Part shown: positions 18,901 through 24,756 of the stretch, in pieces | Layout of the letters: every line of letters begins with the position of its first letter | Position numbering within the stretch: position 1 is the first letter of the stretch | Source: Pseudomonadota bacterium | GTDB lineage: Bacteria > Desulfobacterota > Binatia > Binatales > Binataceae | Length of the DNA stretch: 64,000 nucleotides | Reading direction: 5' to 3' | Assembly (NCBI GenBank): GCA_021325355.1 | Contig: JAJPHI010000016.1 | Location: 103,733 to 167,732 of the forward strand | Position numbers and translations under genes: made by a program | The notes under the pieces: generated by a model | The model's input: the letters and a program-made list of their open reading frames with translations, nothing else | The model's database searches: none | Told to the model about the DNA's origin: nothing

Positions 18901-19101
18901 TGCAGGAACCTCCGTATCCCAAGCTGATATGGAATGTCGCGGTGAGCATCAGAATATCCCGTATTTATGTGGCGATGACAATCGCGCGAGGGCGCCGCCG
19001 AAGGTTGAGCGGAGCCGAGACGATAAGGCTAGTTTGCTGGTAATCGCCCTTGGAGGGACCGCCTGTCGATCACCCTCCAAGGGTTATTGAGGCGTGGCAG
19101 G

Positions 19102-19656
19102 TCAGGCACGGACCTTATGCAGCTTGCGGCTGGACTTGGCGAGGCGGGCCGGTGCGGCTTTGCGTTGCGCCTGGCGCGACGGCACGGGTTTGGGCGTTCC
19201 GACGGCTTTGATCTCGGCGGGTTTGGCCAGCGTTACGACCGGGCCATTGTCAGCCGCAGCGGTCTTTGGCGCGGCGGCCTCCTGCCGACGGGCTTCCGCT
19301 TCACGCTCGAGCGCGGCGAGCTTCCGCTCTTTCCACTCGCGCAGGCCGCGTCGCATGTACTCGGGATTGATATCCAGCATCTCGCAGACGTTGTCGAACG
19401 AAAAAACCCAGTGTTTGTCTTCGAGTGCGATCCATTCGTCAGCGTCGCGGAACAATCGTTGTCCCTTGCTGCTCGACGCGTTGATACACTTCATGAAGCA
19501 CTCGATTGCGTCTTCAAGCACACTTAGAATAAGGCGCTTTTCGCCTTCAAGAAGATGCTTGCGGCGCATCGCCTCAAAATACTGGATCGGCAGAAGCGTA
19601 TCCGGCTCAAAGAGCGTCGGCAGCCTCTCATCCAGTGTATCTTTCTCCTGGTTCAT
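19102..19656 (-). CDS. hypothetical protein with a Lys/Ala/Pro-rich basic C-terminal tail, downstream of iscX
   Basis: The start is at the internal ATG (MNQEKD...), which is preceded by a ggaggaagg RBS. An acidic helical N-domain (about 120 aa) is followed by the tail AAPKTAAADNGPVVTLAKPAEIKAVGTPKPVPSRQAQRKAAPARLAKSSRKLHKVRA. Confidence 0.6.
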   Translation of the reverse strand: MNQEKDTLDERLPTLFEPDTLLPIQYFEAMRRKHLLEGEKRLILSVLEDAIECFMKCINASSSKGQRLFRDADEWIALEDKHWVFSFDNVCEMLDINPEYMRRGLREWKERKLAALEREAEARRQEAAAPKTAAADNGPVVTLAKPAEIKAVGTPKPVPSRQAQRKAAPARLAKSSRKLHKVRA

Positions 19657-19751
19657 CCTTCCTCCGTTAGTATCAAGGGCATCCACCACCGCCACCTCCC
19701 TGCTAGAGCAGTCTTAAAGTCAAGTTAAGGACGATATGTGGAGCGCGCTAT

Positions 19752-19976
19752 TCAATCGTCGCTCTCGCTATCCTCGTAAATTTCGTTCCAGGCCATTTGA
19801 ATCGCCTCCAATTTGCTTTCGTTGGAGGCTGCCGGGTCGTCATCGAATTCGTCGAGGTCAATCACCCATTGGCGCAGGTCCACGAAACGCACATCCAAAG
19901 GATTGAGTCCGGGGTGATTCTCACTGAGCACCTCGGCAATATCTTCGGCTTGATCCCACTTGAGTCCCATCGCCAA
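19752..19976 (-). CDS. iscX: Fe-S cluster assembly protein IscX (YfhJ)
   Basis: MAMGLKWDQAEDIAEVL...VRFVDLRQWVIDLDEFDDDP matches the IscX family nearly motif for motif. Confidence 0.8.
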   Translation of the reverse strand: MAMGLKWDQAEDIAEVLSENHPGLNPLDVRFVDLRQWVIDLDEFDDDPAASNESKLEAIQMAWNEIYEDSESDD

Positions 19977-19990
19977 CCTCCGCCTTGCGC

Positions 19991-21814
19991 TTAGCGCGAA
20001 AACTGCTCCAGGACTCCCTTCTGCAGGGCGTCGCGGATGGCAAAATCCATGATTCGTTCGGCAAACGGGCGGCTTACTTCGTTGAGTTCCTCGACCAGCC
20101 GCACGATTAATTGCCGATCGTTACCGGCGCGTGCCGTTTCGAGTTTCGCCGCCAACCGCTCCATCCTTTCGCGCTCTTCCTGATCGGCGAGTTCTTTATA
20201 TTCCATAAGCTGCTTATGCAGCGCTGTCAGCAGTTGATCGGCATCATTGCGCGCAGTTATCAACAGGCGCTGCTCGATATCCTCCTCACCGCGGTCGATC
20301 GACTCCTCGAGCATCCGCTCGATTTCCTCGTCGGTGAGCCCGTAGCTTGGCTTGACATCGACGGAATGTTCGCGTCCCGTACGCTCATCGCGGGCAGTGA
20401 CGTTAAGGATGCCGTTGGCATCGATCAAAAACGTGACCTCGATCCGCGCCATGCCGGCGGGTTGAGGAGCGATCGGACCGAGTTTGAAGCGCGCCAGGCT
20501 GCGACAGTCCCGCGCGAGTTCACGCTCGCCCTGGACGACGTGAATGTCGACGTGCGTCTGATTGTCCACCGCGGTGGTGAAGGATTCGGTCGCGCTCGTC
20601 GGGATGGTCGTATTACGGTGAATAATGCGTTCGAGGACGCCGCCCATGGTTTCGATGCCGAGCGAAAGCGGCGCCACATCCAGCAGCAGCATGTCGCCCT
20701 GGCCACCCGCAAGAACGCCGGCCTGGACGGCCGCCCCGAGGGCCACCACCTCGTCGGGATCGAGCGTGCAGAGCGGATCGCGGCCAAACAGCTCCTGGAC
20801 GCGACGCCTCACCAGCGGCATCCGGGTAGCGCCACCAACCAGGACCACCTGATCGATGTCCGACGGCTTCAGGCCCGCGTCGGCGAGCGCGCGCCGGCAA
20901 CATTCGAGCGTGCGGGTAACAAAGGGCTCGGCGAGACCTTCGAGCACGTCGCGCCGAAGCTCTTTGGCGAGCCTGCCGCTTGGGGTATCCAGGGCTACCG
21001 GGGTACTTTCGTCGTCCGACAGACGGCGCTTGGCGGCCTCGGCCGCGCTTCGTGCGCGATTCCAGGCGCTCCGGTCCTGCGCGATCGCGCCGCCCGCATC
21101 GCCGAGCAGCCAGTCAACGACGGCGCGGTCGATATCGTCTCCGCCCAGATGCGTGTCGCCATTGGTGGCGAGTACTTCGAAGATTCCGCCCTTGATATTC
21201 AGGATCGAGATATCGAAAGTGCCGCCGCCCAGGTCGTACACGGCAACCTTGCCCTCGGTCGCCTTCTGCAGTCCGTAGGCGAGGGACGCGGCCGTCGGCT
21301 CGTTCAGCAGGCGAACGACTTCGAGTCCCGCCAGACGCCCGGCATCGCGTGTGGCCTGGCGTTGAGCGTCGTTGAAATAGGCGGGCACGGTGATCACCAC
21401 CCGCTGAACCAGTTCACCGCCGAGGATAGCTTCGGCGCGCTGCTTCAGTGACTTGAGAATTTCGGCTGAGATCTCGGGCGGGGTGAAGCTGCGATCGCCC
21501 ACGCTGAAGCGAATCACCGACCCGGAGGTTTCGGCGAAGTTGTATCGTTGGCGGTCGCTCTTATCGAGATCGTCCGCACCGAGACCCATGTAGCGCTTGA
21601 CCGAACGCACGACGACGATATCGGCGTCGGCGCGCTCCTCGAGCGCGATCGCCTCGGTGCCGACAAAGGTCCGGCCCTGAGCGTCGAGCGCCACCACGGA
21701 GGGCACCAAAGCGGCTCCAGTGATCGGGTCGCGCAGGACGTGCGGCACGCCGTCGCGAATCTCCGCGATCAGGCTATTGGTCGTGCCGAGGTCTATGCCA
21801 AAAACGCGATTCAT
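19991..21814 (-). CDS. hscA: Fe-S protein assembly chaperone HscA (Hsp70 family)
   Basis: [17 protein letters not shown] and the other Hsp70 motifs are present. 607 aa, within the isc operon. Confidence 0.95.
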
Positions 21815-21885
21815 TTCGGATTCTAATATCGCGATGCTGTTGCCAAAAGAATTGCTTATAAGGCCGAATGAAAGGACTCTTTTAG

Positions 21886-22536
21886 TCAGGCTGACGGCCG
21901 CGTGTCAAGTGCTTTTTCAATATCTCTTAACAAAGTACGCAGGTACGCTCTTCGGCTAAGGATACTGAGCAACTGCGCGACCGATTCGTCCGGGGGCGCA
22001 TCCTGAACCTGGTCGAGGCTGCAAAAGGTCGCGGCGAGCTCCCGGTCGAGCGCCTCGAGTCGATTTACGATCTCCATTCGCCGTTCGTTTACACGCTCCG
22101 TCAGATCAGACGCATCTGCCGGTACGGCGTTACGGCTTTGCGCAAATTCGGCCAGCTCTTCGTGGATATCGAAGACCATCTCCGCAACGTCTGCGGGCAC
22201 GCGACTGCCGTTCTCGCGCGCTTTACGTCCATGAAGCTCGAGCCAGTAGTTGGCTCGGGAAATTGGGTCGCGTAGGGTTCGATAAGCGCGAGTAAGTAAA
22301 GAAGTTGCAGTCAGGCTGGCTTTGCGAACTTCGGGCCGGGCGGCGGCGAAGCGATCAGGATGAAGCTCGCGCCCCAGCCGATGATAGGTCGCTTCGAGCT
22401 GTTCCGGGGCGATCGTGAGCTTGCGGGGCAGACCCAGAGCCGTAAACAGGTCCACATTTGCGGGCAACGGTCCACTGCAGTTCGAACATTGGAGAGATGG
22501 CTCAGCGAGCCGCCCGCATGACGGACATTGGATCAT
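21886..22536 (-). CDS. hscB: Fe-S co-chaperone HscB (J-domain) with an N-terminal Cys4 zinc-finger
   Basis: J-domain with HPD (RELHPDRF); three-helix C-domain; N-terminal CPSC...CSNC. Confidence 0.85.
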
Positions 22537-22566
22537 AGGCGCGACGCTCGAGCGTCATCCGGGAAC

Positions 22567-22881
22567 TCAGACCGTAAACGACTCGCCACAGCCGCAGGTG
22601 CGCTTGGCATTAGGATTGACCAGGCGAAAGCCGGAAGACATCAGCTCTTCGGCATAGTCGAGTTCCGAGCCGTTCAGGTAGAGAAAGCTTTTCTTGTCGA
22701 CGATGAGGCGGGCGCCGTCGCGCTCGAAGACCTTGTCGCGCTCCTTGGCCGAATCGATCTCCATCCGGTACTGAAGGCCGGAGCAGCCGCCGCCGACGAC
22801 CTTTACGCGGAGGCCGCCGTCGGGCCGATCTGCGGCCAATTGCTTGATTTTACCGACCGCGCGATCCGAAAGCGTAACCAT
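22567..22881 (-). CDS. iscA: IscA/ErpA-type Fe-S cluster insertion protein
   Basis: HesB fold with the C-x(n)-C-G-C triad (GGGCSG ... CGCGESF). Confidence 0.9.
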   Translation of the reverse strand: MVTLSDRAVGKIKQLAADRPDGGLRVKVVGGGCSGLQYRMEIDSAKERDKVFERDGARLIVDKKSFLYLNGSELDYAEELMSSGFRLVNPNAKRTCGCGESFTV

Positions 22882-22893
22882 CGCAAATCCGTT

Positions 22894-23310
22894 TCAGACG
22901 CTCTCCGCCTTCTTCGGCGTCTCGTCCGTCACCCGATGCTTGCGCCAGTCGGTAATCGCTGCCTTGATCGCATCCTCGGCGAGGACCGAACAGTGGATCT
23001 TGACCGGCGGCAGATTGAGCTCCTTCACGATAGCGCTGTTCTTGATCGCCATGGCTTCGTCGATATGCTTGCCCTTGACCAGCTCGGTTACGTAGCTGGA
23101 GCTCGCGATCGCGCTGCCGCAGCCGAAGGTTTTGAAGCGGGCATCTTCGATCATCCCGCTTTCCGGATTGATCTTGAGCTGCAGCTTCATAACGTCGCCG
23201 CATTCCGGCGCGCCAACCACGCCGGTGCCGACGTTTTCCTCGTCCTTGGCAAAGCTGCCCACGTTGCGAGGGTTGTTATAGTGATCGATTACCTTGTCGG
23301 AGTAAGCCAT
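22894..23310 (-). CDS. iscU: Fe-S cluster scaffold IscU
   Basis: Conserved GAPECGDVMKL, LPPVKIHCS and the IscU Cys triad. Confidence 0.95.
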   Translation of the reverse strand: MAYSDKVIDHYNNPRNVGSFAKDEENVGTGVVGAPECGDVMKLQLKINPESGMIEDARFKTFGCGSAIASSSYVTELVKGKHIDEAMAIKNSAIVKELNLPPVKIHCSVLAEDAIKAAITDWRKHRVTDETPKKAESV

Positions 23311-23368
23311 TGTTATTCACCCGGGCGCGGCGCCGGCCGCGTATCAGTTGCAAACGCCGTCTTGTGGA

Positions 23369-24589
23369 TTAGTCTGCCTTCCAAGCCACCGATTTGAGAT
23401 CGATCCCTTCCTTCGCCATTTCGTATAGCGGCGACATATCGCGCAGACGGGTCACTTCGCGGGCAATGCGATCGGTGACGAAGTCGACCTCCTCGGCGGT
23501 GTTGAAGCGTCCGAGGCCAAAGCGGATCGAGCTATGCGCCAACTCGTCGCTGACGCCGAGCGCGCGAATCACGTAAGAGGGTTCGAGCGTTGCCGAAGTG
23601 CAGGCCGAGCCGGAGCTCACGGCCACGTCGCTGATACCCATCAGTAGCGACTCACCTTCGACGTAGGCGAAGCTCAGATTGAGATTACCGGGCAGCCGTT
23701 CGGTCGGATGACCGTTGAGCGAGACCTCGTCGAGGCGTTCGAAGATGCCGGCCTGCAAGCGGTTGCGGAGGTCGGTCAGGCGGCGCGCCTCCTCGACCAT
23801 TTCGCCCTGCGCGACTTCGCAGGCCTTGCCGAAGCCGACAATACCCGTGACATTCAGGGTGCCGGAGCGCATCCCGCGCTCGTGGCCGCCCCCGTCCATC
23901 TGTGCGGTGAGGCGCACGCGGGGTCCCTTCGAGCGTACATAGAGCGCGCCGATCCCCTTGGGGCCGTAGAGCTTATGCGCGCTGAGTGAGGCGAGGTCGA
24001 TGCCGTCGCGCTCGACGTCGAGCGGCACTTTGCCGGCGGCCTGGACAGCGTCGCAGTGGAAGATGACGCCCTTCTCCTTCGCGATGCGGCCGATCTCGCG
24101 CACGGGATGGATCGTGCCGATCTCGTTGTTGGCGTACATGATCGTGATAAGCACGGTCTTGTCGGTGATCGCCTTGCGCACGTCGTCAGGATCGACCATC
24201 CCGTACTTGTCGACCGGCAGATAGGTTACAACCGCCTTGCCGGCCCGCTCGAGCGCGCGGCAACTGTCGAGCACCGCCTTATGCTCGGTCACGCAGGTGA
24301 TGACGTGGTTGCCCTTATCCTTGTAGAACTCGACAATGCCCTTAATCGAAAGATTGTCGGACTCGGTCGCTCCGCTGGTAAAGATGATCTCCTTAGGTTT
24401 GGCATTGATCAGCGCCGCAATCTGCTGTCGCGCACGATCGACCGCCTCTTCCGCTTCCCAGCCGAAACTGTGATTGCGGCTAGCCGCATTGCCGAATTTC
24501 TCGGTGAAATATGGCAGCATCGCCTCGAGCACCCGCGGATCCGTGGGCGTGGTGGCGTGATTGTCCATGTAGATCGGCAGCTTCAGCAT
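23369..24589 (-). CDS. iscS: cysteine desulfurase IscS
   Basis: PLP lysine motif [18 protein letters not shown] active-site Cys loop. 406 aa. Confidence 0.95.
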
Positions 24590-24632: not shown

Positions 24633-24647
24633 AATAGTGGACCTATT
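24633..24647. promoter_or_regulatory. inverted repeat AATAG-N5-CTATT about 40 bp upstream of the iscS start (possible Rrf2-type operator)
   Basis: aatagtggacctatt lies next to a TATATT/TAATAT -10-like element on the iscS strand. Confidence 0.2.
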
Positions 24648-24756
24648 GGGTATATTATGGCTGGAGCAGTCGCAATGTCAAAGCGGACCCGAAAAAATTT
24701 CCCGATGGCGCGGCAGGATAACGGGTCGGCATCGCTGCGGCAACCTTACCGCGCGG

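Follow-up and report, generated by a model that had tools for sequence, protein, structure and literature searches.

An unannotated gene at the end of an isc operon

The 64,000-nucleotide (nt) stretch of Candidatus Binataceae DNA analysed here (the window; contig JAJPHI010000016.1 of assembly GCA_021325355.1) carries on its reverse strand an iron-sulfur cluster (ISC) operon with the gene order iscS-iscU-iscA-hscB-hscA-iscX, and the last gene of this operon, following iscX, encodes the unannotated protein that is our subject. An earlier note, drawn from the letters of the window, had placed this open reading frame (ORF) directly after iscX on the same strand, with a strong ribosome-binding site. 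That placing stands, as do the identity of the upstream gene and the Shine-Dalgarno sequence directly before the ATG (Table 1), but the length of 185 amino acids (aa) does not, since the 555 nt comprise 184 aa and a stop codon. The closest database protein, P0001, is 100% identical and is called 'hypothetical protein' in a Candidatus Binataceae metagenome-assembled genome (MAG). The 1,261 homologues, and a reading frame that is kept through a variable tail as far as a conserved C-terminal motif, show the ORF to be a genuine gene and not a chance one. The ISC system as such is known; on the sequence evidence, this component is an additional, unannotated ISC-operon protein that figures in no library we searched.

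The NCBI gene model (P0001) starts at an in-frame GTG at 19695, which gives a protein of 197 aa. The 13 codons between this GTG and the ATG are open in most relatives, the differences among relatives appear in-frame, and the upstream start could be the true one in some species. In one relative (L081) an in-frame stop lies just before the ATG, so that the ATG start is safe and the 13-codon extension uncertain. We use the numbering from the ATG throughout.

Linkage to Fe-S genes across clades

For close relatives we used 80 GTDB species genomes, the best 80 of 563 relatives, all of them Binataceae or 'delta proteobacterium' MAGs. In 78 of the 79 genomes that could be tested the gene comes straight after iscX, the 80th locus beginning at a contig edge, and the gene on the 3' side varies. 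Outside the Binataceae, ISC or SUF-like operons end with a family member in at least four clades. One of these has proteins of 152 aa, ~55% identical to the window protein, from MAGs labelled Binatia, Deltaproteobacteria, Zixibacteria and Acidoferrales; the three distinct loci read have the order cysteine desulfurase - IscA-like - SufB/D - cysteine desulfurase - Rrf2 - gene. A further subfamily, which lacks the cysteine at position 53 (C53) and is 41-47% identical to the window protein, has an Rrf2 gene immediately upstream in all 73 testable soil contigs (80 came from a metagenome scan), and its longer contigs read UvrA - iscS - iscU - iscA - hscB - hscA - (iscX) - Rrf2 - gene - zinc-ribbon membrane protein - M17 peptidase. 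In the neighbouring Rrf2 proteins there is a cluster motif of three spaced cysteines. Three of four more distant members examined are also linked to iron-sulfur (Fe-S) genes, in the orders cysteine desulfurase - IscA - gene (L095), iscS-U-A-hscB-A-iscX - gene (L096) and hscA - Rrf2 - gene (L097, where the gene as called and the stop codon of Rrf2 overlap).

Across divergent lineages and operon designs, the gene thus keeps its place and its orientation beside genes for cysteine desulfurase and a scaffold or carrier; of more than 150 testable loci, only two have the family member outside ISC and SUF-like operons. Every linked operon type contains cysteine desulfurase and the A-type carrier, and no other gene is shared by all of them. 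The earlier note had suggested a factor linked to the Fe-S pathway and had proposed looking for the gene beside isc genes in related genomes; the gene does stay linked to them, which upholds the suggestion.

There is also a paralogous clade, of which two members were examined, and in both the gene is tightly coupled to, or overlaps with, a thioredoxin gene. One of the two comes from a MAG that also holds a member of the 152-aa clade. The paralogue cluster (L098 2264-4084, L099 1349-3262) consists of a sigma-54 activator with GAF domains, three small ORFs, the thioredoxin, the paralogue and a further small ORF. The small ORFs are of 51-53, 134 and 91-93 aa; the last is faintly STAS-like, and none has a known family.

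In clades other than the Binataceae a conserved protein of 91-104 aa is encoded 3' of the gene (L095 8551-8865, L096 8614-8895, L097 2216-2491 and most of L100-L179). Its N-terminal part matches zinc ribbons weakly and a later part matches DUF6232, also weakly, so that it may lie in the membrane. The gene after it encodes an M17 leucyl-aminopeptidase. In E. coli, too, an M17 peptidase gene (pepB) sits right after iscX, and the neighbourhood may therefore be ancient.

Sequence constraint and invariant residues

We measured constraint as the median identity to the window proteins across the 80 Binataceae species genomes. The domain formed by aa 1-112 of the unannotated protein (86.2%) is slightly more conserved than IscU (84.9%), IscS (84.2%) and IscA (82.9%), and far more so than IscX (77.9%), HscA (67.3%) and HscB (47.9%). 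Conservation of this order is typical of core interacting subunits, and regulators usually evolve faster.

Across an alignment of 49 distant members, C91 and W75 are each present in 49 of 49 sequences and C53 in 38 of 49. P18, E39, L42, L47, D49, A50, F85, S86, F87, L94, Y100, R102, G104 and L105 are conserved at ≥90% in the same alignment, and Cys91 is conserved at ≥90% in a larger alignment of 131 sequences. We tried, and rejected, a three-cysteine Fe-S site (C53, C57, C91) as a feature of the family: C57 is not conserved and C53 is missing in one subfamily, where V, I or A replaces it. This pattern excludes a family-wide multi-cysteine cluster site, and a single functional thiol is strongly indicated by the alignments.

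An acidic helical domain with a disordered tail

The earlier note described an acidic helical N-terminal domain followed by a basic tail, and quoted the tail sequence; the description agrees with our results and the quotation is correct. Residues 1-112 have an isoelectric point (pI) of 5.1 and a net charge of -5, whereas residues 129-184 have a pI of 11.9 and a net charge of +11 over 56 aa, with 23% Ala, 12% Pro and 23% Lys+Arg (14% Lys, 9% Arg). The same division of charge runs through the family, in which the domain has a median pI of 5.4 and is net negative in 79-100% of members, and the tails are net positive in 83-99%. AlphaFold2, given a 118-sequence alignment, predicts five helices (aa 24-33, 38-57, 63-77, 87-93 and 98-128), with a predicted local distance difference test (pLDDT) score above 90 over aa 40-130; we used this model, a single-sequence model having reached a pLDDT of 50.6 only.

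The structure search of the N-terminal domain that the earlier note had proposed, carried out with this model and Foldseek, returned no known family. The best match in the PDB had an E-value of 1.2, and the only matches rated probable, all in BFVD, were to small proteins without a known function from uncultured tailed phages (E=1.7e-3 to 2.6e-2), namely A0A6J5S871, A0A6J5LQ74, A0A6J5N409 and A0A6J7X4V3, of 104-157 aa, with probabilities of 0.98-1.00 and 22-26% identity. The fold may therefore extend into phages.

The tail (residues 113-184) is detectable by TBLASTN in only 7 of the 80 Binataceae genomes, no secondary structure is predicted for it (pLDDT 54-67), and its median length is ~80 aa in the Binataceae and ~33 aa in distant relatives. 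Its end, by contrast, is conserved. Sequence logos show a family-wide C-terminal core, L-[R/L]-K-A, followed by two or three residues. In the Binataceae the C-terminus is L-R-K-A-R-A (L 90%, R 81%, K 97%, A 79%, R 73%, A 96%), in the 152-aa clade it is [LMF]-L-K-A-[VA]-G-R, and in the subfamily without C53, whose tail is short, it is L-R-K-A-S-G-D preceded by acidic residues. The thioredoxin-linked paralogues and similar members have ends such as ...RLAG and ...KMVG. Since the end is conserved while the linker varies, we regard the tail as a flexible linker bearing a short linear motif rather than as a DNA-coating tail of the H1 kind. The core looks like a docking or recognition peptide. Paralogues that lie outside isc operons have the motif too, which makes a general factor, or else the domain itself, the probable partner. 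The Binataceae form resembles the ClpX C-motif-2 tags of YbaQ (RAKKVA), PaaA (HARKVA), Rsd (RVKHPA) and MuA (RRKKAI) (PMC9775585, Table 2).

Family size and database searches

The 1,261 homologues noted above were found at E≤1e-3 in a word-indexed protein search. An exhaustive HMMER search with residues 1-130 returned 5,634 representatives at 50% identity, with 2,220 below 1e-10. The earlier note had recognised no family for the protein, and none emerged from our searches. The window protein gave nothing significant in Pfam, NCBIfam, PHROGs or PADLOC, and no Pfam or NCBIfam family at E≤1; 131 distant relatives gave nothing significant in Pfam, NCBIfam or PHROGs. Searches of the PDB by sequence and by profile had best E-values of 0.13 and 0.84. 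Neither an HU or H1 domain nor an Rrf2 domain was matched in the window protein by Pfam, and at E≤1 it had no match to ferredoxin, frataxin/CyaY, SufE/CsdE, TusA, NfuA, BolA or glutaredoxin; known Fe-S accessory families were also missing from the weak matches listed for the 131 relatives. Significant sequence matches to relatives on plasmids, phages or viral contigs were not found.

Two further candidates were discarded. A divergent duplicate of IscX is not supported by hhalign, which gave a probability of 0.2% (E=0.33) against an IscX alignment. Rosetta-stone fusions were sought among longer family members, which proved to have no extra known domains; one of these, P0309, looks from its sequence like a read-through gene call. 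Our literature search found no paper combining iscX with Binatia, or Binatota with iscS.

The operon, its promoter and its end

The operon genes were identified by Pfam matches (Table 1). The E. coli isc operon layout includes fdx and iscR; neither is present in the window operon (19991-24589). TBLASTN found no Rrf2 gene in the window, nor within 8 kb of the gene in the 80 related genomes. Upstream of iscS lies a predicted promoter overlapped by an operator-like sequence, and 67 aligned Binataceae upstream regions keep this arrangement, with a promoter consensus of TTGACA-N17-TATAnT overlapped by ATACCTAnCAGGTCCACTAAT. Many Binataceae genomes have a second copy of the operator further upstream. 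In most of the Fe-S operons inspected in other clades, GAC[C/T]-N5-[A/G]GTC follows the -10 box; this matches the core of the E. coli IscR type-1 site (GACT-N5-AGTC). The Binataceae operator implies an IscR-type repressor encoded elsewhere in the genome, and a repressor of the Rrf2 type can account for control of these operons, including those without a local iscR. In other lineages an IscR-like gene follows hscA or iscX, which puts it at the operon's 3' end and not at the 5' end.

No other gene of the operon evolves nearly as fast as hscB (48% median identity). The window HscB (21886-22536) has an N-terminal CPSC...CSNC double-CxxC before its J domain, in which the HPD motif is present (DnaJ, E=1.5e-5). 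The double-CxxC recalls the zinc-binding N-terminus of human HSC20 and is absent from E. coli HscB.

The spacer between iscX and the gene measures 71-241 nt, with a median of 94 nt, at 84 loci. We considered an RNA element in it and dropped the idea, there being no Rfam match and folding being no better than that of shuffled sequences (z=+0.79). The hairpin on the 3' side of the gene is probably the operon terminator. It has no U-tract, and a simple terminator scan did not flag it; the next gene, for an amidohydrolase, begins 200 nt further on.

Table 1. Features of the isc operon and of its last gene in the window (window positions).
Feature	Position	Strand	Remarks
GC-rich hairpin	19047..19084	-	18 nt past stop codon; 11-bp stem; -26.3 kcal/mol for 75-nt region
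Coding sequence of the unannotated protein	19102..19656	-	184 aa, ATG start; stop codon at 19102-19104
C-terminal peptide L-H-K-V-R-A, aa 179-184	19105..19122	-	local form of the family motif
Variable Ala/Pro/Val-rich basic linker, aa 129-178	19123..19272	-	predicted disordered, pLDDT 54-67
Acidic helical domain, aa 1-128	19273..19656	-	AlphaFold2 with 118-sequence alignment
Cys91 codon	19384..19386	-	within FSF[D/E]N[I/V]C motif; invariant in 49-sequence alignment
Shine-Dalgarno sequence GGAGGAAGG	19657..19665	-	directly before ATG; GGAGG-type element precedes ATG in most relatives
Remainder of 95-nt spacer between iscX and the gene	19666..19751	-	holds second conserved, purine-rich element
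Purine-rich element AGGGAGGTGGCGGTGGTGGATG	19680-19701	-	25-45 nt 5' of ATG in most Binataceae
iscX	19752..19976	-	PF04384 E=2.2e-26; TIGR03412 E=1.4e-24
hscA	19991-21814	-	Pfam match
hscB	21886-22536	-	Pfam match
iscA	22567-22881	-	Pfam match
iscU	22894-23310	-	Pfam match
iscS	23369-24589	-	Pfam match
Predicted iscS promoter TTGACA-N17-CATAAT with overlapping IscR-type-1-like operator	24634..24681	-	kept in 67 aligned Binataceae upstream regions
IscR-type-1-like operator ATACCCAATAGGTCCACTAT	24634-24653	-	overlaps predicted iscS promoter

Proposed role and alternative explanations

Taking together the three readings that place the protein in Fe-S biogenesis, we regard its link to that process as well supported and likely to hold. 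As to what it does there, we lean, with somewhat less than an even chance, towards a thiol-dependent adaptor or modulator that binds another protein and is accessory to Fe-S biogenesis. This is favoured by the conservation of the domain at the level of the core proteins, its acidity, the invariant cysteine, the thioredoxin-linked paralogue and the persistence of the gene across ISC, SUF-like and minimal operons. The compact five-helix domain would dock on a core protein of Fe-S biogenesis, the likeliest partners being cysteine desulfurase and/or the A-type carrier, since only their genes occur in every operon type that holds a family member. Cys91 would then perform thiol chemistry, whether as a persulfide acceptor, a cluster co-ligand or a redox gate, while the L-[R/L]-K-A end of the flexible tail would be a peptide that a general partner recognises, or a latch within the molecule.

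Several observations weigh against the adaptor reading. At one Binataceae locus (L061) no isc gene occurs within 8 kb, and one of the four more distant members (L094) has no Fe-S neighbours. UvrA stands upstream of many linked operons, together with a phosphoglucomutase-type gene where the flank reaches so far, and part of the synteny may for that reason be gene order inherited in related lineages. The tail motif closes with A, R or D according to the clade, which weakens the case for a degron and keeps the ClpX interpretation tentative. Contact with another protein is itself something that we infer. Finally, the model has helix-turn-helix (HTH) geometry at aa 85-108 (helix 87-93, a four-residue turn, helix 98-128), of 131 members, 7 match HTH_29 (best E=0.017) and 2 match HTH_23 (E=0.009), in each case below threshold, and the phage proteins matched in BFVD are as compatible with a generic small DNA-binding domain as with an adaptor.

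The last three of these points belong to the case for a thiol-switch DNA-binding regulator or co-regulator, the main alternative, possible but rather unlikely, in which the HTH-like segment and the basic tail would bind DNA and oxidation or persulfidation of Cys91 would alter the binding, tuning isc or suf beside IscR; thioredoxin would reset the paralogue. Y100, R102 and K109 are conserved in the second of the two helices, the sub-threshold Pfam matches cluster on HTH families (HTH_29, HTH_23, HTH_17, HTH_Crp_2, TFIIB), and JGI labels a few members 'transposase-like protein'. The gene follows Rrf2 immediately in two clades, a sigma-54 activator gene comes first in the paralogue cluster, and most clades have a basic tail. 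Yet the globular domain is acidic throughout most of the family, none of the HTH families reaches significance, conservation equal to that of IscS and IscU would be unusual for a regulator, and the last position in an operon is not usual for the operon's own regulator. The isc promoter, moreover, already has its IscR-type operator, which lowers the need for the unannotated protein as the DNA-binding regulator of the operon, and no second conserved operator was seen there. A further alternative, which we think quite improbable, is that the protein is a partner or antagonist of the IscR-type Rrf2 protein, binding IscR or delivering or removing its cluster and so tuning repression. It would suit the 73 contigs and the three distinct loci of the 152-aa clade in which the gene directly follows Rrf2, the overlap with the Rrf2 stop codon at L097, and the operator that Binataceae operons keep though iscR lies elsewhere, by which the gene would still be under IscR control. 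There is also a precedent in Fpa (YlaN) of Staphylococcus aureus, described as binding Fe(II) and lifting repression by Fur (PMC11559061). The gene nevertheless persists with no Rrf2 gene within 8 kb in the Binataceae, L095 and L096, the paralogue is not near any Rrf2 gene, and the match to YlaN is no better than those to many unrelated helical bundles.

The nucleoid interpretation raised in the earlier note, that of a nucleoid or general nucleic-acid-binding protein with an H1/HU-like tail, fares worst, and the same low probability covers an unrelated gene that merely rides at the operon end; we consider these highly improbable. The window tail is indeed basic, with much Ala and Pro, most members have tails of net positive charge, and the gene could in principle go with the conserved downstream genes of some clades (zinc-ribbon membrane protein, M17 peptidase). 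There is no HU or H1 domain, however, the tail is conserved neither in sequence nor in length, its short form in one subfamily bears acidic stretches, and it is the acidic domain that is strongly conserved. Downstream, the genes vary from clade to clade, whereas the Fe-S genes upstream stay the same.

A stronger form of the adaptor reading, which we hold to be unlikely although less so than either of the last two alternatives, makes the protein a near-core, cysteine-bearing subunit of ISC and SUF-like systems in Binatia and other uncultured soil lineages. It would bind cysteine desulfurase or the A-type carrier, join directly in sulfur or cluster transfer and have its abundance set through the C-terminal recognition peptide, and it might take over a role that a known accessory protein fills in other systems. 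The bacterial ISC pathway is generally seen as a fixed set of parts, IscR, S, U, A, HscB, HscA, Fdx, IscX and CyaY, and beside this possibility we note that the operons lack fdx. If the protein acts on the machinery, it is an added component and possibly a new control point in widespread uncultured soil bacteria, one that might depend on a thiol and might involve regulated proteolysis. The family is an easy target, since the protein is small and soluble-looking and its candidate partners are conserved and well characterised.

At L061 (5500-8500), a bactofilin-like ORF lies directly upstream of the gene, with a transposase-like fragment further upstream, as judged by eye from the translations; the arrangement suggests rearrangement. 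A PAP2 phosphatase gene lies further upstream on the opposite strand, and PAP2 is also the upstream neighbour at the unlinked locus L094.

Comparison with known systems

The window tail has in common with histone H1 tails and HU that it contains Lys, Ala and Pro, is net positive and is disordered. H1 tails contain ~40% Lys, however, and the 23% Lys+Arg of the window tail is well below this; the protein has neither the HU fold nor the H1 globular domain, and its tail is short in most family members. Fpa (YlaN) differs in that it shows no sequence similarity to our protein, the match being a generic one, in that it is encoded outside isc operons and in that it has no tail.

IscR and other Rrf2 regulators are likewise encoded in ISC and SUF operons and use cysteine, and the unannotated gene is often adjacent to an Rrf2 gene. 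The protein itself differs from them in having no Rrf2 domain, a single invariant cysteine and an acidic domain, and the IscR-type operator is present whether or not the operon holds an Rrf2 gene. As regards the ClpX C-motif-2 tags, the Binataceae ending (L-H-K-V-R-A in the window) is similarly basic, has a small final residue and closes a disordered segment, and E. coli IscR and IscS are listed among the ClpXP substrates (PMC9775585, Table 2). Other clades, unlike these tags, end in ...KAVGR or ...KASGD, and the conserved core is L-[R/L]-K-A and not the terminal residues.

A further parallel is IscX (YfhJ). The unannotated protein has no detectable homology to it, is twice as long, possesses a Cys and a Trp that are invariant, and has a disordered tail that closes with a conserved peptide; it also co-occurs with IscX and does not replace it. 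Both proteins are nevertheless small, acidic, all-helical and encoded at the 3' end of the isc operon. IscX is acidic and has an HTH-like fold, yet it binds IscS and iron rather than DNA, and we propose by analogy that the unannotated protein may behave in the same manner, binding protein and not DNA.

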